Source of the DNA: an uncultured delta proteobacterium
GTDB taxonomy: Bacteria; Myxococcota_A; Polyangia; Polyangiales; Polyangiaceae
Assembly: GCA_963763745.1 (NCBI GenBank)
Contig: CAVXQJ010000016.1
Coordinates: forward strand, 513,029 to 577,028
Length of the DNA: 64,000 nt
Direction: 5' to 3'
Part shown: one piece after another, positions 4,151 through 64,000 of the stretch
Layout: the number at the start of each line of letters is the position of its first letter
How positions within the stretch are numbered: position 1 is the stretch's first letter
Position numbers and translations under genes: made by a program
Notes under the pieces: generated by a model
Databases searched by the model: none
Told to the model about the DNA's origin: nothing
Seen by the model: the letters and a program-made list of their open reading frames with translations, nothing else

Positions 4151-5605
4151 ATGAAATTCGTCTATGCGCTCGGTGGTTGTTCGCTTCTTGCTGGGTTCGC
4201 GCTGTTCGATTGCAGCAGCCCGAGCCCGTGCACCGGTGCCTCATGCGTCGATGCGTCCCAAGTGCCCGGCGTGTCGGGCGGCGGCTGCGATTCGGGCAAA
4301 CCCGCTTCGCAAGGCGGATGCGCCGTCGACGACAGCGATGGGTTCTTCGTTTCGCTCACCGGGAGCGACACGGCGACGGGCGCGAAGACGGCGCCGTTTC
4401 AGACGATCAACAAAGGGATCTTGGCGGCCGCAGCGAACGCGCAGAAACCGAACGTCTACGTGTGCGCGGGGACGTACGCCGAGAATCTCGTGATTCAAAA
4501 TGCGCCCGCGGGCGTCGCGATTCACGGCGGGTTCGACTGCGCGAGTTGGGCGCCGGGCACCGCGCCGACGACGGTCGCACCCGCGTGGCAAACGGGGAGC
4601 ACGTCGCCGCAGTTCGTTCTTCACGTGCTCGGTGTTGCGGCGGTCGTGGAGGGCATGACGCTCACCGCGCCCGACGCGACGGACCCGGGCGCGTCGAGCG
4701 TCGTGGCGTACGTCGATGGATCGCCGGGGATGACATTTCGTCGTGCGACCGTGACGGCAGGCGCGGCGAGTGATGGTGTGACCGCTACACCTCCCGCGCC
4801 GCTTGCTGCAGCGGCGAACGGGAACGCTGGTGCGTTCGAGACGGTTGCACCAGCGAAGAGCTGTCAGTGCGCGTCGGATACGACGATTGGTGGACAGGGT
4901 GGTGGGCTCAACGATGCGGGCGTGCAGATCGACGCAGCGCCCGGTGCTCCGGTGATCAACGGCGACACGACGAAAGGGCAGGCGGGGATCGGCTACGACA
5001 TCGACGCCTCGTGTTTTGGCGGCGTCGGCTCCGACGGAATCGTGGGCAAAGCAGGCACGAGCACTGGAACGTATGGCGGGCTCACGAGCACCGGTTGGAT
5101 GCCTTCACCGGGCGGCGCGGGAACGAGCGGCGGCACGGCCCAAGGTGGTGGAGGTGCGGCGTGGCCCATCTCTGGGAACACGGCATGCGGCGGAAGTGGT
5201 GCGTGTGGAGGGTGCGGAGGGATTGGCGGAATGGGCGGCAGCGGTGGTGGTGGAAGCATTGCGGTTGCGGCATCGAGCTCCGTGCTGCGCGTCCAAGCAT
5301 CGACCATTCACGCCGGCAAAGCAGGTAACGGTGGTGATGGGAGTGCGGGTCAAGCAGGTCAGCCTGGTGGCACTGGTGGAGGAGGCGTGTGCACCGGCGG
5401 CAACGGCGGAACCGGCGGCGCAGGTGGCGCAGGTGGCGGCGGCGCCGGTGGCGTCTCGATCGGCATCGCGACGTTCGCGACGACACCGGACGTCGACGCG
5501 CAAAGCACCGTGCTCTCGGGCACCGCAGGTCAAGGCGGTCACGACGCGACGGCCACACAAACGAAAGCGATCGACGGCATCGCCGGCGCCGTTCACTCCT
5601 TCTGA
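4151..5605 (+). CDS. Gly-rich right-handed beta-helix lipoprotein (DUF1565-like)
   Basis: Start moved to MKFVYALGGCSLLAGFALFDC (lipobox) within ORF 3845..5605; FFVSLTGSDTATG...PFQTI resembles DUF1565 / pectin-lyase fold; long GGxGG tracts. Confidence 0.6.
   Translation: MKFVYALGGCSLLAGFALFDCSSPSPCTGASCVDASQVPGVSGGGCDSGKPASQGGCAVDDSDGFFVSLTGSDTATGAKTAPFQTINKGILAAAANAQKPNVYVCAGTYAENLVIQNAPAGVAIHGGFDCASWAPGTAPTTVAPAWQTGSTSPQFVLHVLGVAAVVEGMTLTAPDATDPGASSVVAYVDGSPGMTFRRATVTAGAASDGVTATPPAPLAAAANGNAGAFETVAPAKSCQCASDTTIGGQGGGLNDAGVQIDAAPGAPVINGDTTKGQAGIGYDIDASCFGGVGSDGIVGKAGTSTGTYGGLTSTGWMPSPGGAGTSGGTAQGGGGAAWPISGNTACGGSGACGGCGGIGGMGGSGGGGSIAVAASSSVLRVQASTIHAGKAGNGGDGSAGQAGQPGGTGGGGVCTGGNGGTGGAGGAGGGGAGGVSIGIATFATTPDVDAQSTVLSGTAGQGGHDATATQTKAIDGIAGAVHSF

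Positions 5606-8139: not shown

Positions 8140-8140
<1 letters not shown>
8078..8140 (-). terminator. Rho-independent terminator-like hairpin; repeat family 3 copy 1 (approximate coordinates)
   Basis: Perfect 14-bp inverted repeat gaaggtcagaagaa / ttcttctgaccttc with 6-nt loop, followed on minus strand by a CUUUUG tract; lies directly 3' of the Q-rich gene. Confidence 0.5.
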
Positions 8141-9039
<899 letters not shown>

Positions 9040-9181
9040 GTGGGCGATCTCCTGTTTTGCGCGGCCTGAGCCGCCGTCTTTCGCGCGGGAAAGTGTCGCA
9101 GGTTTCTCGCAGAAGTGAAAGACCGCAAAATAAGGCAAAAACAGGGCGAAAACGGCATGTTTGTGCGAAAACGTTCATCGC

Positions 9182-10195
9182 ATGGAACTCGCGACGTGCA
9201 CGACGCTCGGGCTCGGTGGCGAGGCGCGAAGGCTCATCGAGGCGCGCGACGAGCGCACATTGATCGACACGGTGCGCGAGTGTGACGCGCGCGGCGAGCC
9301 GGTGTTCGTTCTCGGCGGTGGAAGCAACGTCGTCTTCGCCGACGAAGGATTCGATGGAACGATCGTGCGCGTCGCGACGCGCGGCATCGTGATCGGCGAC
9401 GGAGTGATCGACGTCGCGGCGGGCGAGCCGTGGGACGATCTCGTTTCGTGGATGGTGACGAGTGGCCTCGCGGGCACGGAGTGCATGTCGGGCATTCCCG
9501 GTCTCGTCGGCGCGACGCCGATGCAGAACGTCGGCGCGTACGGACAAGAAGTGAAGGACACGCTCCGCGAAGTGCGCGTGTGGGATCGTCAGAGCGCGCG
9601 CATGATGGCGCTCTCGCGCGAAGCATGCCGACTCTCGTATCGCCACAGCATGCTCAAGGAGACCGCGTCGCGATGGATCGTCTTGCGCGTCGCTTTCTCC
9701 GCGTCGAAATCATTGCAGAGTGCACCCATTCGGTATGCCGAGCTCGCGCGAGCTCTCGGCGTGAAGGAAGGCGACACGGCGCCGCTCGCGCGCGTTCGCG
9801 AAACCGTGATCGCGCTGCGAAGAGCGAAGGGCATGGTCCTCGATCCGAACGACGCGGACACGAAGAGCGCGGGTTCGTTCTTCGTGAACCCGACGATGGA
9901 CGAAGCGGCGTACGAAGCGCTCTCCGCGCGCGCGAACGAAAAGGTGCCGCGGTTTCAAGACGGCGATCGCGTGAAGGTGCCGGCAGCGTGGCTCATCGAG
10001 CGCGCGGGGTTTGCGAAGGGGACGGCGCGCGGGGCTGCGGCGATTTCGACGAAGCATGCGCTCGCGATCACCAATCGTGGCGGGGCGACGACGAAGGAAG
10101 TGATGGAGCTCGCACGCGCGGTGAGGGATGGGGTGGAGGGGAAATTTGGCGTGCGGCTCGAGGTGGAGCCGGTTTTGGTGGGGTGTTCGATTTGA
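9182..10195 (+). CDS. murB: UDP-N-acetylenolpyruvoylglucosamine reductase
   Basis: FAD-binding N-terminus (FVLGGGSNVVF) and MurB C-terminal domain; start chosen at MELATCTTLG. Confidence 0.9.
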   Translation: MELATCTTLGLGGEARRLIEARDERTLIDTVRECDARGEPVFVLGGGSNVVFADEGFDGTIVRVATRGIVIGDGVIDVAAGEPWDDLVSWMVTSGLAGTECMSGIPGLVGATPMQNVGAYGQEVKDTLREVRVWDRQSARMMALSREACRLSYRHSMLKETASRWIVLRVAFSASKSLQSAPIRYAELARALGVKEGDTAPLARVRETVIALRRAKGMVLDPNDADTKSAGSFFVNPTMDEAAYEALSARANEKVPRFQDGDRVKVPAAWLIERAGFAKGTARGAAAISTKHALAITNRGGATTKEVMELARAVRDGVEGKFGVRLEVEPVLVGCSI

Positions 10196-10204
10196 CGGGG
10201 GAGA

Positions 10205-10370
10205 AGAGGGGCACCCCTCCGCCGTGCTCGCCGTCGTCCTCGCTCGTGCTCGCCGGCAATGCGTGCAATATACATGTTTCGGCTGCGCGCGAGCTTGCGG
10301 GCGACGGCTGCGCGCGGCGGGTCCCCTCAGGCGTTCGCTTCGCGAACGCGAGGGGACGGGGTCTTCAATG
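10205..10370. repeat. MITE-like palindromic repeat family 1, partial copy A (approximate)
   Basis: Shares the family-1 modules ctcgtgctcg, tgcaatatacatgtttcg, gctgcgcgcgagcttgcgggcga and cccctc..gcgttcgc-t/g-aagcgaacgc..gagggg with copies at 18.8 and 25.5 kb. Confidence 0.6.
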
Positions 10371-10403
10371 GGTCGCTCGCGGTGATGGGCTGCGAAACGG
10401 TAC

Positions 10404-10526
10404 GGGCTGTCGTGTGATTGCACGCCAAACGCGAAAGATTCCTGCCAGCGCCGAGTGAGCAGCGAGTCGTGATTGCGCTGTCATGAATCTTTCGCTGGGG
10501 ATTGGCATGCAATCACACGACAGCCC
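10404..10526. repeat. Palindromic hairpin element family 2, copy 1; overlaps start of DUF559 gene (approximate)
   Basis: Arms gggctgtcgtgtgattg...gcgaaagattcctgccagcgc and gcgctgtcatgaatctttcgc...caatcacacgacagccc are reverse complements; second copy at 11.2 kb. Confidence 0.65.
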
Positions 10527-10863
10527 TTCTCAGTTCTTTCTCATCCAACGTGCGCGCGAGATGCGGCGTGAGCCGACTCGGAGCGAAGCTTTGCTCTGGG
10601 CGCAGATTCGCGGGCGCAAGCTCGGCGCTCGCTTTCGCCGGCAGGCTCCGCTCGATCGCTACATCGTCGATTTCTACGCGCCGTGCCACCGGCTCGTCGT
10701 CGAAGTCGATGGCGCAATTCACGATTCGCGAATCGAAGCCGATGCGATTCGCCAACGCGAAATCCAAGCGCTCTTCGGCGTTCGCTTCATTCGCATTCGC
10801 GCAGAGCTCGTCGAGCGCGACGTGCGCGCCGCCGTCCAGCTCGTTCGCGCCGCGCTCATATGA
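10483..10863 (+). CDS. DUF559 (Vsr-like endonuclease fold) domain protein, paralog 1
   Basis: RSEALLW...FRRQAPLDRYIVDFYAP...VVEVDGAIH matches the DUF559 signature; N-terminal 17 codons lie in the family-2 hairpin. Confidence 0.7.
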   Translation: MNLSLGIGMQSHDSPSQFFLIQRAREMRREPTRSEALLWAQIRGRKLGARFRRQAPLDRYIVDFYAPCHRLVVEVDGAIHDSRIEADAIRQREIQALFGVRFIRIRAELVERDVRAAVQLVRAALI

Positions 10864-11242
10864 GCGCCGCGCAGATGATGTCGAGTGCGGCTTGGATGTC
10901 GCGCTCGACGAGGTCGGACGAGATTCGGAGAACGCGGACGCCGTAGAGACGAGCAAGCTCAGCGTCGCGCCGCGCATCGCGCTCGCGTTGCTCCGCGTGA
11001 ATGCCACCGTCGACTTCGATGACGAGCTTGTAAGAAGCAACGAAGAAGTCCGCGATGAACGGATGAAGCGGATGCTGCCGCCGAACGCGAACGCCGAGCT
11101 GTTTGCCGCAAACGCGGCGCCAAAGCAGCGCCTCGCTTCGTGTCGGAGCTTTGCGCATCTCGCGAGCGCGTTGCGTGATTGAGAAGAGCGAAGGGCTGTC
11201 GTGTGATTGGTCGTGCATGCCAACTACGAGCGAAAGATTCAT
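10856..11242 (-). CDS. DUF559 domain protein, paralog 2 (convergent, 3' ends overlap by 8 nt)
   Basis: MNLSLVVGMHDQSHDSPS...RSEALLW...RRQHPLHPFIADFFVASYKLVIEVDGGIH; N-terminus is nucleotide-identical to the paralog over about 50 bp, the rest diverged at DNA level but conserved as protein. Confidence 0.7.
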   Translation of the reverse strand: MNLSLVVGMHDQSHDSPSLFSITQRAREMRKAPTRSEALLWRRVCGKQLGVRVRRQHPLHPFIADFFVASYKLVIEVDGGIHAEQRERDARRDAELARLYGVRVLRISSDLVERDIQAALDIICAALI

Positions 11243-11327
11243 GACAGCGCACTCACGCCTCGCTGCTCACTCTGCGCTGGCAGGAATCTTTCGCGTTCGG
11301 CGTGCACGACCAATCACACGACAGCCC
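11193..11327. repeat. Palindromic hairpin element family 2, copy 2 (inverted relative to copy 1; approximate)
   Basis: gggctgtcgtgtgattgg...cgaaagattcatgacagcgc / gcgctggcaggaatctttcgc...caatcacacgacagccc. Confidence 0.65.
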
Positions 11328-11385
11328 GAAGTGTTCGCGCCACCAACCTGCGACGAGCCCCCATCCCCGCTACCAACCCACCTCA

Positions 11386-11473
11386 ATTTCGGCGAAGCCG
11401 AAATATGAGGGGGCGCCAACACGCGCAGGCTCGAAACTTCCGCCTCACGCGTCTCGTGCGTGAAGTTTCGAGC
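11386..11473 (-). terminator. Two tandem hairpins at the 3' end of the radical-SAM operon (approximate)
   Basis: atttcggc-gaa-gccgaaat palindrome and gctcgaaacttc...gaagtttcgagc 12-bp stem with 21-nt loop spanning the rSAM stop codon at 11445. Confidence 0.3.
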
Positions 11474-12593
11474 CGAGCATGTTGGCGGGGGGAGAGAGAA
11501 GCAGAAGCAACAAACCGCACAACGCGCGGACACTCCGGATCCCCCCATCCCCCGCACCCAAAAACCGCGAAACCGCCTTGCACCCGCCACGACACACGTC
11601 GCGCAAGGCACACGCATCACACGGCGCGCTCGTCCCGTGCGCCGCCACTTCACCCGGCTCCAAAAAACTGCACGGCGCGCTTCGCCCATCGGAGCGCACC
11701 GCGGACAGCGCCGCGCCCGCTTCGCAACCGAAGACGCCGAGCGCGCGCAAGTCGGCCGCGCGATCGTAGAGCGCGTCGGAGAGGAGCGCGACCATCGCGC
11801 AGTCGATGCGGAGGCGAAAACCCGATGCGTGCATTCTGCACACGATGTGCTCGATCGCCTCTCCCAGCGACGCGACTTGTTCGCGCGTGAGACGCTTCGC
11901 GAGGTAGTCGAGCTTCGCAGCGCGGCCAGCCGGTTTGTATCGGAGGAGCTGCGCTTCGCGCGCGCCGAGATCGCGAGCGCGCGCGATCGTGTCGCCCAGC
12001 GCGGGGAAGCTCTGGCGCGTGAGGACGACGTTGACGCCGAACGGGACGTTCGCTTCGTGGAGGAGTCGCATCGCGCGCTCGGCGACGCGCGCGCCGGGGA
12101 ACGCGCGGACGGAGCGATACACTTCGTCCTCGCCGTCGTAGCTCACGTTGACTTGCGCGAACGCGCCGAGCGCGCGTGCCTTGTCGCGCGTCATGCCGAC
12201 GCCGCTCGTCGTGACGACGGGGATGAGGCTGTGTGCGCGCGCTCTCTTTGCGAGCTCGCCGAGGTCGTCGCGAAGGAGCGGCTCGCCGCCGCCGAACGCA
12301 ACCGTGAAGACGCCGCTCTGCGCGAGCGCTTCGAGCGTACGTTCGAGCGCGTCGCGTTCGACGTGCGCGCCATCGGGGCGCGCATCGAGATAACAACCTT
12401 CGCATCCGACGTGACACTGCGACGTGACCGCGACGTGCGCCTCGAGCGGCGCGCTCTTCGTGATCGCGATGTCGCGCCACGCATCGCCGCCGTCGATTCC
12501 AATCTTGCGCGCACCTTCGCGATCGAGCGCGACGAGCGCCGCGGGCTCATCGACCCGCACCCATGCCCCCCAACTCTCGATGCGCGTCCTCAC
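11445..12593 (-). CDS. Radical SAM enzyme with C-terminal SPASM domain (peptide-modifying maturase-like)
   Basis: CHVGCEGC (CxxxCxxC) radical-SAM cluster motif and C-terminal CDACALRDVCRGGC (Cx2Cx5Cx3C) SPASM motif. Start set at GTG 12593 because it overlaps the upstream peptide stop as GTGA; the long 645-aa ORF upstream of this point is Arg-rich off-frame junk overlapping two real genes. Confidence 0.75.
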   Translation of the reverse strand: MRTRIESWGAWVRVDEPAALVALDREGARKIGIDGGDAWRDIAITKSAPLEAHVAVTSQCHVGCEGCYLDARPDGAHVERDALERTLEALAQSGVFTVAFGGGEPLLRDDLGELAKRARAHSLIPVVTTSGVGMTRDKARALGAFAQVNVSYDGEDEVYRSVRAFPGARVAERAMRLLHEANVPFGVNVVLTRQSFPALGDTIARARDLGAREAQLLRYKPAGRAAKLDYLAKRLTREQVASLGEAIEHIVCRMHASGFRLRIDCAMVALLSDALYDRAADLRALGVFGCEAGAALSAVRSDGRSAPCSFLEPGEVAAHGTSAPCDACALRDVCRGGCKAVSRFLGAGDGGIRSVRALCGLLLLLLSPPANMLGSKLHARDA

Positions 12594-18809: not shown

Positions 18810-19136
18810 ATTTCTCCCCCCGCTCGTGCTCGGGCTCGTCCTCGGTCATGCTCGGCGGCCGATGCATGCATTGTACATGTTTCCGCCTGCGCGTGACCTT
18901 GCGGGCGAGCCCTGCGCGCGAGCGTCCCCCTCTCGGTGTCGGCCCAAAGCGGCCGCCACCGAGGTGGGAAGTGTCTTCACTTTCTCATTGAAGACCATTC
19001 CCCCTCGCGTTCGCGAAGCGAACGCATGAGGGGGACGCTCGCGCGCAGGGCTCGCCCGCAAGCCGCGGTGAGGATGTGTCGTGGCTCTGGACCGCGGCGA
19101 GGACGAGCCCGAGCACGAGCGGGGGGAGAACTTCTC
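18809..19136. repeat. MITE-like palindromic repeat family 1, full-length copy B (about 328 bp, nested inverted repeats; approximate)
   Basis: Terminal inverted repeats atttctccccccgctcgtgctcgggctcgtcctcg / cgaggacgagcccgagcacgagcggggggagaa; inner IR cttgcgggcgagccctgcgcgcgagcgtccccctc / gagggggacgctcgcgcgcagggctcgcccgcaag; central gcgttcgcgaagcgaacgc palindrome. Confidence 0.7.
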
Positions 19137-25470: not shown

Positions 25471-25695
25471 GTTTCTCCTCCGCTCGTGCTCGGGCAGGGG
25501 TCTCCCCCCGCTCGTGCTCGGGCTCGTCCTCGTCAGCGGCGGACGATGCGAGCAGCGTGAATGTTCCGCCTGCGCGTGACCTCGCGCGCAGCCCGGCGCG
25601 CGCAGAGCCGCGCGGAGGCGAAACATGTATATTGCACGCATTGTCGCCGAGCACGGCCGAGCATGCCGGCGAGCACGAGCGGGGGAGAAATCTCG
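25471..25695. repeat. MITE-like palindromic repeat family 1, copy C (approximate)
   Basis: Left arm ctccgctcgtgctcggg (duplicated) ...gcctgcgcgtgacc; right arm cgaaacatgtatattgcacgcattg...ggcgagcacgagcgggggagaaatctc; lies between divergent ligase and hflX starts. Confidence 0.65.
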
Positions 25696-61949: not shown

Positions 61950-64000
61950 ATGACTGAGAAGAAAGCTCCCCCGCCGCCCGCAGGCCGTGACGACGAACCG
62001 GTCGTGTTCGGCGATGAGCTGCCGGTGCTTCCGATTCGCAATGCCGTGCTCTTTCCGGGCGCGGTCGCCCCGTTCGACGTGGGCCGCGAGAAATCGGTCG
62101 CGCTCGTCGAAGACGTCGACAATCTGACGTCGCCCATCATCGCGATCTTCGCGCAGAAGGATCCGTCGACCGACGATCCCGGCCAAGACGATCTGCATCA
62201 GGTCGGCTGCGCGGCGCGCGTGCTGAAGGCGCTCAAGCATTCGAGCGGAAATTACTCGCTCATCTTGCAGGGCCTCACGCGCATCCAGCTCAGCGATGTG
62301 ACGCAAGGCGCGCCGTACATGAAGGCGAAGATCAAGCGGCTCGAAGAAGCCCCCGTCGGCGACGACGAGGCCGAGGCGCTCTCGATGAGCCTCCGCGACA
62401 TCGCGAAGCAAGTCATCCAGCTCATGCCCGAGCTGCCGCGCGAAGCGGGCTCGCTCATCGATTCGATCCAAGCGCCTGGCGCGCTCGCGGATCTCGTCGC
62501 GGCGAACCTCGACGCGCCGGTCGACGAGAAGGCCGCGCTGCTCGAGACGGTCGACGTGAAAGAGCGCATCCGCAAGGTGCTGCGTCTTCTCACGCGCCAG
62601 CTCGAGATCTTGAAGATGCGCGACCGCATCAACTCGCAGATCAAAGAAGAGATGGGCAAGAACCAGCGCGAGTACGTTCTCCGCCAACAGCTCAAGGCGA
62701 TCAAAGAGGAGCTCGGCGAGGACGACGGCGATCAAGGCGACCTCGACGGTCTCGAGGATCGCATCGCCAAGGCGAGCCTCCCGCAAGAGGCCGAGCAAGT
62801 CGCGAAGAAGCAACTCAAGCGCCTCCGCAACATGCAGGTCGGCTCGGCGGAGTACACCGTCGTCCGCACGTACCTCGATTGGATCATGGATCTGCCGTGG
62901 AACCAGCAGACCCCGGACAACCTCGAGATCGCGGCAGTCCGCAAAGTGCTCGACGAAGATCACTACGGCCTCGAGAAGGTGAAAAAGCGCATCCTCGAGT
63001 ACCTCGCCGTTCGCAAGCTGAAGAAGGACAAGAAGGGTCCGATCCTCTGTCTCATCGGTCCGCCCGGCGTCGGTAAGACGTCGCTCGGTCGATCGATTGC
63101 GCGCTCGCTCGGTCGCAAGTTCCACCGCATCTCGCTCGGCGGCGTTCACGACGAGGCCGCGATCCGCGGTCACCGCCGCACGTACGTCGGCGCGCTGCCC
63201 GGACAAATCATCCAAGGCATGAAGAAGGTCGGAACCATCAACCCGGTCTTCATGCTCGACGAGGTCGACAAGATCGGCCACGACTTCCGCGGCGACCCCG
63301 CGGCCGCATTGCTCGAAGTGCTCGACCCCGAGCAGAACTTCAGCTTCGCGGATCACTACCTCGAGATCCCCTACGACCTCTCGAACGTGATGTTCGTCGC
63401 GACGGCCAACATCGCCGACCCGATCCCCGCTCCGCTCCGCGACCGCATGGAGATCCTCGAGATCCCCGGCTACACGCGAAACGAGAAGCTCGCGATCGCC
63501 AAGCGCCACCTCATCCCGAAGCAGCTCGAGGAGCACGGCATCTCCAAAGAGCAGCTCGACATCACGGACAAGGCGCTCGACATCATCATCGATCAGTACA
63601 CGCGCGAAGCGGGCGTTCGTACGCTCGAGCGCCAAGTGGCGAGCGTCATCCGCGGCGTCGCGGTGAAGATCGCCGAGGGCGACCTCAGCCCACGCAAGAT
63701 CGAAACCGAAGAGCAGGTGCGCGAGTTCTTGGGCGCGCAACGCTTCTCGTCGGAAGTCGCGGAGCGCACCGAAGAGCCGGGCGTCGCGACGGGCCTCGCA
63801 TGGACGAGCGTCGGCGGAGAGATCCTCTTCATCGAAGCGACGAGCATGTACGGCTCCGGCAAGCTGCAGCTCACGGGTCAGCTCGGTGACGTCATGAAGG
63901 AGTCCGCGCAAGCGGCCCTCAGCTACGTCCGCGCCAACGCGGAGAAGTTCGGCATCGCCAAGGACTTCCTCGACAAGCGCGACATCCACATCCACATCCC
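61950..64000 (+). CDS. lon: ATP-dependent Lon protease, N-terminal about 683 aa (3' end outside window)
   Basis: Found by direct reading (not in ORF table because no stop in window): [21 protein letters not shown]..., LON N-domain, Walker [16 protein letters not shown], Walker [10 protein letters not shown]. Confidence 0.9.

Follow-up and report, generated by a model that had tools for sequence, protein, structure and literature searches.

The 5′ region of the transposable element IS200 carries a terminator-like hairpin and a stem-loop that occludes the ribosome binding site, and in IS10 and IS50 the folding back of read-through transcripts inhibits translation of the transposase. A similar layout is found around a convergent pair of DUF559 nuclease genes in an uncultured member of the Polyangiaceae (contig CAVXQJ010000016.1), within a stretch of 64,000 nt that was analysed as a whole and is referred to here as the window. 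Each of the two genes starts inside a long hairpin, R1. R1 is the 5′ part of a compact DUF559 module of about 0.75 kb, of which there are several copies per Polyangiales (Myxococcota) genome. Like IS200 and IS10, the module is a compact element (roughly 0.7 kb) with one small DNA-cleaving protein; its first upstream hairpin is terminator-like, and the second structure pairs the start with upstream sequence and would likewise block transcripts that enter from outside. Unlike these elements, it encodes a Vsr-like PD-(D/E)XK nuclease rather than an HUH or DDE transposase. The occluding helix is 50–55 bp long and extends into the open reading frame (ORF), compared to about 10 bp in the insertion sequences, no internal promoter was identified, and neither a right-end structure nor a transposition chemistry is evident.

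Other described systems share different parts of this arrangement. Free-standing or intron-borne homing endonuclease genes of the Vsr/DUF559 clade, such as that of I-Bth0305I (PDB 3r3p; PMC3424549), encode a nuclease of the same clade. Like the module, they are small, apparently selfish single-gene units that are present or absent at a conserved host site. The DUF559 module differs from these homing genes in having no intron or intein, in occurring in several copies per genome at unrelated sites, and in carrying a conserved left end (LE) and a small second hairpin (R2) in addition to R1. In REPtrons, a gene for a REP-associated tyrosine transposase (RAYT) lies between inverted repetitive extragenic palindromic (REP) hairpins. 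The nuclease gene or gene pair similarly lies between inverted small GC-rich hairpins, and there are gene-less hairpin pairs elsewhere, but no HUH or Y1 protein is present, the R2 copies are about as numerous as the genes rather than running into the hundreds, and R1 has no REPtron counterpart. Integron attC sites are imperfect palindromes of similar size that belong to single-gene units, with free sequence but a conserved structure and a few conserved unpaired positions. R1, however, is located at the 5′ end of the gene, over the start codon; its arms end in GGGCTGTCG.../...CGACAGCCC, without R and L core sites (GTTRRRY), and there is no integrase or cassette array. Escherichia coli Vsr and Caulobacter VsrA belong to the same fold and family as the proteins described here, and the uncontrolled nuclease damages DNA: VsrA, itself a DUF559 nuclease, sets off the SOS response, indicating potential genotoxicity (PMC12907096). 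In contrast to these, the module has no adjacent cytosine methyltransferase and belongs to a multi-copy family, and no such leader hairpin is known for vsr. The module would function like the IS200 and IS10 leaders but lacks the features that define IS200/IS605 elements, REPtrons, miniature inverted-repeat transposable elements (MITEs), attC sites and invertible switches. In the literature searched, no description of a hairpin associated with DUF559 or Vsr-like genes was found.

A hairpin over the start of DUF559 genes

An original prediction, made from the sequence of the window, had described two convergent DUF559 paralogs that each begin inside a hairpin, and most of this description holds. 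Both ORFs, 10483..10863 on the plus strand and 10856..11242 on the minus strand, are present, and their 3′ ends share 8 nt that include the stop codons. Both products are DUF559 proteins, with Pfam PF04480 scores of 86.6 bits (E = 1.3e-24) and 88.5 bits (E = 3.4e-25) against a cut-off of 20.6. As predicted, the paralogs have diverged in DNA while being conserved as protein: the proteins are 57% identical, and the nucleotide identity between the two copies is about 50–83% per 30-nt block in the coding sequence versus 87–97% in the hairpin core. The start codon does lie inside the hairpin, in its 3′ arm, but it is not the first ATG of either frame, as had been proposed. The conserved start is the second ATG, at 10507–10509 in gene 1 and 11218–11216 on the minus strand in gene 2, so that the genes extend over 10507..10863 and 10856..11218, with non-conserved alternative starts at 10483 and 11242. 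Homologues were found in metagenome-assembled genomes (MAGs) of Polyangiaceae and other Polyangiales and in soil metagenomes, and most of them begin M-[HRN]-x-x-x-D-x-P-S-L-F, which corresponds to this second ATG (the database protein P0001 starts exactly at 10507), and the first ATG (10483, MNLSL) reads ACG in most homologous loci.

The protein itself is by its sequence an ordinary DUF559 (Vsr-like PD-(D/E)XK) member. It has a profile match to the solved DUF559 structure 3HRL (E = 2e-17), and for the gene 1 product AlphaFold2 predicts a confident alpha/beta structure (mean predicted local distance difference test (pLDDT) score 87.5; predicted template modelling score 0.80). Within the (D)...E-x-D-G-x-x-H motif, residues D63, E74, D76, G77 and H80 are the same in all 24 sequences compared and are presumably catalytic. 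In the same model, pLDDT is below 50 at residues 1–11, and helix 1 starts only at residue 17 (numbered from the ATG at 10483). The outer 3′ arm of R1 thus encodes only a disordered N-terminal tail, and is therefore free to covary. The two genes meet at a perfect 16-nt palindrome, GCGCTCATATGAGCGC, at 10852..10867, which was read from the sequence and the alignment. Both end ...L-I-stop on this palindrome, which is the symmetry center of the whole insertion described below.

R1 of module 1 spans 10404..10526 on the plus strand, as delineated by its inverted repeats and its fold, and scores 108.6 bits with the R1 covariance model. Its outer arms are at 10404–10428 (5′) and 10502–10526 (3′), its inner arms at 10431–10451 (5′) and 10475–10495 (3′), and its apical loop at 10452–10474. 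A G-rich bulge, TGGGGA, occupies 10496–10501, and two conserved mismatches are found at T10481.C10445 and T10484.C10442. R1 of module 2, identified in the same way, spans 11193..11327 on the minus strand (91.7 bits), with outer arms at 11193–11221 and 11299–11327 and inner arms at 11230–11251 and 11273–11294. The repeat shared by the two genes is thus one arm of a long hairpin of about 125–135 nt that buries the start codon in both, as the original prediction stated. Folded as single strands, the two copies reach −77.1 kcal/mol (z = −7.7) and −93.9 kcal/mol (z = −10.9), energies that were not attained by any of 200 shuffled sequences in either case. The 17-mer at the arm ends, CAATCACACGACAGCCC, occurs exactly four times in the 64 kb, once at each arm end, where 0.12 occurrences would be expected. 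The two copies are about 92% identical, and copy 2 carries matched 6-nt insertions in both arms relative to copy 1, so that pairing is retained. An Rfam scan of both strands gave only generic miRNA-precursor matches (46 bits, compared to a gathering threshold of 168), and a scan of the variant hairpins described below matched no family.

Is the hairpin specific to DUF559 genes? A total of 160 DUF559 loci were fetched, and the window and all loci (1.58 Mb) were searched on both strands with the R1 covariance model, counting sense-strand matches above 90 bits as strong. All 33 such matches coincide with the start of a DUF559 ORF, with none elsewhere, although the loci were sampled by the presence of DUF559 and the background consists of their flanks, so that hairpin-only copies could escape. 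The only orphan matches are ones cut by contig ends. The better-scoring strand is the gene strand in 33 of 33 cases, and R1 is positioned on the ORF with single-nucleotide precision. Where enough upstream sequence is available, each Polyangiales-type locus has a hairpin in this register. Weaker variant hairpins are present in more distantly related myxobacterial DUF559 loci, also upstream of the gene; in two variant families (L108 and L028/L121), the 3′ arm covers a GGAGG directly before the ATG. DUF559 genes from Chloroflexi, Bacteroidota and other phyla are without R1. A check of the kind that the original prediction had suggested, for genes lacking the hairpin and hairpins lacking the gene, thus favors a specific association in this sample.

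What is conserved in R1 is its structure. The stem sequences are unrelated between loci, as is seen by comparing GGGCTGTCGTGTGATTGCACGCC in the window with, for example, GGGAGCGTCGTTGCGAAGGTGCATG and GGGAGCTTCGTGCGGTGCCACGCC elsewhere. In a structural alignment of 33 R1 copies (32 distinct sequences) from Polyangiales genomes and metagenomes, 97.7% of the stem cells are paired, compared to 71.7% in column shuffles and about 40% when the partners are slid. Both-sided changes occur at 30 of the 36 pairs, for a total of 282 compensated cells, and RNAalifold reports compensatory changes at 26 of 36. Fold energies across the copies range from −77 to −104 kcal/mol. Among R1 copies that are 90–96% identical, there are no changes in the stems versus 5–13 in the approximately 65 unpaired columns; the stems are thus under purifying selection. 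The pair had originally been likened to repeat-associated gene families. The hairpin does accompany this gene family, but R1 is neither a chance palindrome nor a sequence repeat: its stems are wholly different in sequence and are kept by covariation.

R1 has an outer stem of 25–30 bp, an inner stem of about 20 bp and an unconserved apical loop of 23–45 nt. Between the inner and outer stems, on the 3′ side, is an asymmetric bulge, which in 21 of 33 copies contains a G-rich Shine-Dalgarno-like run 3–6 nt 5′ of the ATG. The conserved ATG is the first element of the outer 3′ arm, and its U and G form pairs in each of the 32 distinct sequences. The inner stem of every copy, including the distant variants, has a C.U mismatch and a second C.U or C.A mismatch, in the context of a 5′-arm C[C/G][T/C]GCC opposite a 3′-arm GTCA[T/C]G. 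An ORF running through the whole hairpin, which would explain the 5′-arm mismatches as removing TGA, was considered and rejected: the loop lengths are not multiples of three, and in about half of the loci there are in-frame stops 30–51 nt 5′ of the ATG.

A few hairpins lie outside this pattern. At the start of one contig (L010, 1–210), the DUF559 5′ region forms a palindrome with 84-nt arms and a poly-G/poly-C center, which was set aside as probably a fold-back assembly or sequencing artifact caused by the hairpin. Several loci from lower-GC taxa (L091, L109, L112, L137 and L149) have different long hairpins 5′ of DUF559, of the CCCTCTCCC...GGGAGAGGG type. Strong inverted repeats (score at least 18) are also frequent outside the R1 clade, where they occur at 19% of DUF559 starts, compared to 6% for the starts of other long ORFs and 2.5% for random windows. 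It may be that hairpins accompany DUF559 genes in general.

The module and its insertion at murB

The module consists, in order, of LE, the small GC-rich hairpin R2, R1 and the DUF559 ORF, the stop codon of which is the right boundary. These limits are apparent from recent paralogs in the same MAG (L016a and L016b, 95% identical; also L020 and L024), where homology extends from about 250 nt 5′ of R1 to the DUF559 stop codon and no further. In the window, LE of module 1 (10208..10254, plus strand) starts with a mini-palindrome, GGGGCACCCC, followed by the repeats CCGCCGTGCTCG / CGTCCTCG / CGTGCTCG, and begins 12 nt past the murB stop codon (10195). LE of module 2 (11470..11499, minus strand; TCTCTCTCCCCCCGCCAACATGCTCGGCTC on that strand) was delineated by alignment to the ends of gene-less relics and by comparison of the adjoining C-terminus with relatives. 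Across genomes, the LE motif is GGGGCWCCCC, then CCGCCGTGCTCGG plus one or two similar (GTGCTCGG-type) repeats, and most loci have it upstream of R2. A co-oriented ORF (of 180 or more codons and a third-position GC content of at least 0.8) has its stop codon within about 20 nt before the beginning of LE in 10 of 21 loci, compared to 0.9% of random positions. In one locus (L012), it begins about 5 nt past a tRNA-Gly(CCC) gene (tRNA at 5249–5323, LE from 5328 onward). The 3′ ends of tRNA genes are classic landing sites of integrative elements.

R2 of module 1 is located at 10308..10365 on the plus strand, with a core at 10321–10357 (69.2 bits with the R2 model), and has the sequence GTCCCCTC-AG-GCGTTCGC-TTC-GCGAACGC-GAGGGGAC, preceded by an CTGCGCGCG flank. 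R2 of module 2, at 11369..11428 on the minus strand (56.8 bits), has the same architecture. The general form is CTGCGCGCG-n-GYCCCCTC-nn-(8-bp stem)-TTC-(stem)-GAGGGGRC, located 40–130 nt 5′ of R1, and the inner stem covaries (15 copies). The R2 model matches 5′ of R1 in most loci, sometimes in inverted orientation 3′ of single genes, and rarely elsewhere. Could R2 simply be a general terminator of these genomes? This was rejected, because nearly all R2 matches in 0.49 Mb adjoin DUF559 modules or relics. In one locus (L003), R2 and a 24-residue DUF559 fragment lie side by side at 2225–2287 and 2390–2461, about 7.5 kb from an intact module; this copy appears to have decayed.

DUF559 is the only ORF of the module, with no HUH/Y1 transposase (TnpA or RAYT). 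No conserved partner gene was found beside the modules, the neighbors differing from locus to locus. A sigma-70 consensus scan of 10150–11500 gave no promoter-like site, and inspection for sigma-54, extracytoplasmic function (ECF)-type and minus-strand −35/−10 combinations revealed nothing consistent across copies. A possible terminal inverted repeat at the 3′ end of single modules was discarded, being only a weak resemblance inside conserved coding sequence, and no target-site duplication was recognized at the junctions examined.

The two modules of the window form a single quasi-palindromic insertion of 1.29 kb (10196..11499), in which LE-U-R2-R1-DUF559 faces DUF559-R1-R2-U-LE. On one side is murB (9161..10195, plus strand), and on the other a radical-SAM gene on the minus strand. 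In three relatives (L163, L164 and L165), the MurB proteins of which are 74–78% identical to that of the window, murB and the radical-SAM gene converge directly: they overlap by 63 nt in one relative and by 4 nt in another, and are 32 nt apart in the third, compared to 1.29 kb in the window. None of the three has a DUF559 gene call or a significant R1 or R2 match at the murB site. The window MurB has kept its native C-terminus. The radical-SAM frame, on the other hand, enters the right-hand LE and, six codons past the conserved DPECPRVV motif, encodes residues specified by LE. Because the host genes overlap in relatives and the radical-SAM C-terminus is altered in the window, the direction appears to be one of gain, and a gain of the modules at the murB site is more likely than three losses. 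The original prediction had explained the pair as an old local duplication with a homogenized 5′ end. The genes are indeed paralogs, but they belong to two multi-part modules that make up an insertion with an empty site in three relatives.

Palindromes may be collapsed or mis-joined in MAG assemblies; this does not apply to the window pair, the two genes of which are too diverged. A second tail-to-tail dimer is found in another locus (L007). The C-terminal part of the radical-SAM gene (11383–11613, minus strand) appears frameshifted, with the CRGGCKAVSRFL and DPECPRVV motifs in different frames. Both frames continue into the inserted element, which could be a consequence of the insertion or a sequencing error. 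The right flank also has an extra inverted repeat of about 30 bp at 11416–11487, GCCAACA...GCTCGAAACTTC / GAAGTTTCGAGC...TGTTGGC, between R2 and LE, with no counterpart on the left. Directly upstream of murB, an ORF at 8140–9138 (minus strand) has a repetitive N-terminal half rich in Gln, Pro, Tyr and Gly and a hydrophobic C-terminal part.

The window also harbors module ends without a gene. In a relic of about 317 bp at 18813–19129, LE-U-R2 faces R2-U-LE, with the same terminal motif, TCTCCCCCCGCTCGTGCTCGG, as in the DUF559 module; it lies between convergent long ORFs, the stop codons of which are 6–15 nt from its ends. A shorter relic at 25477–25690 has LE-U facing U-LE, without R2, and a fragment is found at 62709–62739. 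Central deletion is the usual fate of long palindromes, and the relics are presumably central-deletion derivatives of full dimers (or, for the one at 18813–19129, alternatively a MITE-like derivative). An AT-rich patch, GCAATATACATGTTTC, is present both in the 25477–25690 relic and at 10260–10280, which is odd in a GC-rich genome; it could be a promoter or a binding site.

Proposed silencing of the nuclease and the alternatives

Why would a nuclease gene begin inside such a helix? The geometry, with its paired ATG, Shine-Dalgarno-like bulge and gene-strand bias, fits control of translation initiation. The block looks like an undescribed selfish gene module, the hairpin of which probably keeps the nuclease silent. 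We tentatively favor, at somewhat less than an even chance, the view that R1 is a translational silencer of read-through transcripts and R2 an attenuator within an insertion module. It is favored because the layout (a terminator-like hairpin, a start-burying helix and a small DNA-cleaving protein) matches the two-tier self-silencing of IS200 and the fold-back control in IS10 and IS50. Transcription of host genes would read into the promoterless-looking module, and R2 would stop or attenuate the incoming transcripts. The upstream arm of R1 would pair with the start codon and the first seven or so codons in a helix of 25–30 bp. Transcripts carrying the 5′ arm would then go untranslated, and the potentially DNA-damaging nuclease would remain silent.

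Several observations weigh against this scheme. A clear Shine-Dalgarno-like run is missing in one third of the copies, and the conserved C.U and second C.U/C.A mismatches of the inner stem fit no explanation offered. Translational occlusion would need much less stability and much less perfect pairing than the stems have. In one locus (L083), R1 and roughly the first 17 codons have been lost, whereas LE, U and R2 are retained along with an intact DUF559 domain. (The R1-less protein of this locus, at 1200–1480, would begin MRKKPTRSE, and database homologues of about 100 amino acids, P0010, P0014 and P0033, may share the R1-less form.) The spectrum of pairs is a further difficulty. Selection on a sense RNA is expected to tolerate G.U but not A.C, and a single mismatch should have almost no effect on the stability of a helix of −77 to −104 kcal/mol. 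Watson-Crick pairs make up 1117 of the 1150 stem cells, and the others include 15 pyrimidine-pyrimidine and 6 A.G combinations; G.U is no more common than A.C, at 6 of 1150 each, a spectrum unlike that typical of selection on RNA. The purity of the helix and the symmetric changes in arm length suggest that the arms are kept complementary at least partly at the DNA level, one arm serving as template for the other (quasipalindrome correction), in addition to selection. Such templating is compatible with a function at the RNA level, and a role of R1 at the DNA level is also possible. The structured translational control proposed in the original prediction therefore survives as the leading functional reading, with the proviso that pairs are almost only Watson-Crick and part of the constraint may act on DNA.

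If R1 acts as DNA, as a single-stranded hairpin or cruciform, it would be a cis site through which the module spreads, recombines or is repaired, recognized by the DUF559 nuclease or by a host enzyme. The mismatches would confer strand or orientation specificity, as in attC and IS608. This alternative is the main rival, but on the whole doubtful. It would account for a helix with 97% Watson-Crick pairs, in which G.U and A.C are equal at 0.5% each, and for the symmetric arm-length changes, including the matched 6-nt insertions, although passive quasipalindrome correction would suffice for such purity. It would also suit the multi-copy, insertion-like character of the family and the C.T mismatch that is kept in all copies, distant variants included. 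The presence of a homing endonuclease within the Vsr/DUF559 clade (PMC3424549) and a 14-fold enrichment of DUF559 among genes overlapping the inverted repeats of predicted inversion targets (PMC9881135) point in the same direction. However, it would leave unexplained the constant register of R1 with the start codon and with the G-rich bulge, and a non-palindromic apical loop of 23–45 nt disfavors cruciform extrusion. Moreover, a PD-(D/E)XK nuclease cannot rejoin DNA by itself, and neither a target-site duplication nor a right-end hairpin was found. A bolder proposal, and a rather unlikely one, is that LE-R2-R1-DUF559 represents a new class of nuclease-only selfish element in Myxococcota that spreads in a homing-like manner by break-induced copying. 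The nuclease would recognize structured DNA, either R1, R2 or the palindromic center of empty LE-R2/R2-LE pads at gene 3′ ends. Nicking and short-patch repair would keep the arms Watson-Crick, the conserved mismatches would mark the functional strand, and the palindromic dimers and the relics at 18.8 and 25.5 kb would be stages of the life cycle.

Alternatively, the genes could form an ordinary chromosomal family of host repair nucleases, with R1 and R2 as a 5′ leader (for example, one processed by RNase III or a stress riboregulator) and the difference at murB being due to deletion. The hairpin is indeed kept with the gene across species, the surrounding genes have unrelated housekeeping functions, and neither a transposase nor an integrase was seen. 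We nevertheless consider this quite unlikely, given at least four copies per MAG at unrelated sites, a homology unit sharply bounded by LE and the stop codon, and an LE that adjoins host stop codons and a tRNA. Gene-less relics with the same ends speak against it as well, as do the overlap of murB and the radical-SAM gene in relatives and the radical-SAM C-terminus that reads into the element in the window. A programmed inversion switch, in which recombination between hairpins or arms flips the segment and swaps or silences the genes, is very unlikely. Flipping the pair would restore an identical architecture, nearly all loci consist of R1 with a single gene, and the internal orientation relative to the gene is the same in 33 of 33 copies; in addition, no invertase was noticed in the vicinity, which was not searched systematically for one. 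The idea draws on the long inverted repeats that flank the pair (93-nt arms, 91% complementary, about 700 bp apart) and on hairpins that are much more alike than the genes, as recombination or gene conversion predicts, and the DUF559 enrichment in Milman et al. (PMC9881135) fits it too. Finally, since the genome does hold dispersed palindromic repeats, a MITE- or REP-like palindrome might have landed by chance 5′ of each gene and supplied the ATG. To this we give hardly any credence: there are no R1 copies away from DUF559 in the 1.58 Mb of DUF559 loci and flanks, the stems of one genome's copies are wholly different in sequence yet paired, and R1 lies at exactly the same nucleotide position relative to each ORF.

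Implications for the DUF559 family

A genome-wide survey by Milman et al. noted that DUF559 genes unusually often overlap inverted repeats, and offered no explanation; among the predicted inversion targets, 'DUF559 domain-containing protein' was 14-fold and 'endonuclease domain-containing protein' 9.6-fold enriched (PMC9881135). Hairpins of the R1 type over the 5′ ends of ORFs could explain this enrichment; inversion itself left no sign here, the 33 copies all having one orientation. As a natural helix of about 50 bp that has stayed Watson-Crick-perfect while its sequence turned over completely, R1 is also an unusually clean case in which selection on RNA could be told apart from arm-to-arm templating of DNA. 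The R1 and R2 models can be used to annotate such elements in myxobacterial genomes.

To our knowledge, DUF559 is among the most widespread bacterial nuclease families without an assigned role. Are many of its genes selfish elements rather than repair enzymes, and how does the cell, or the element itself, silence a genotoxic nuclease? With the module described here, both questions become testable.

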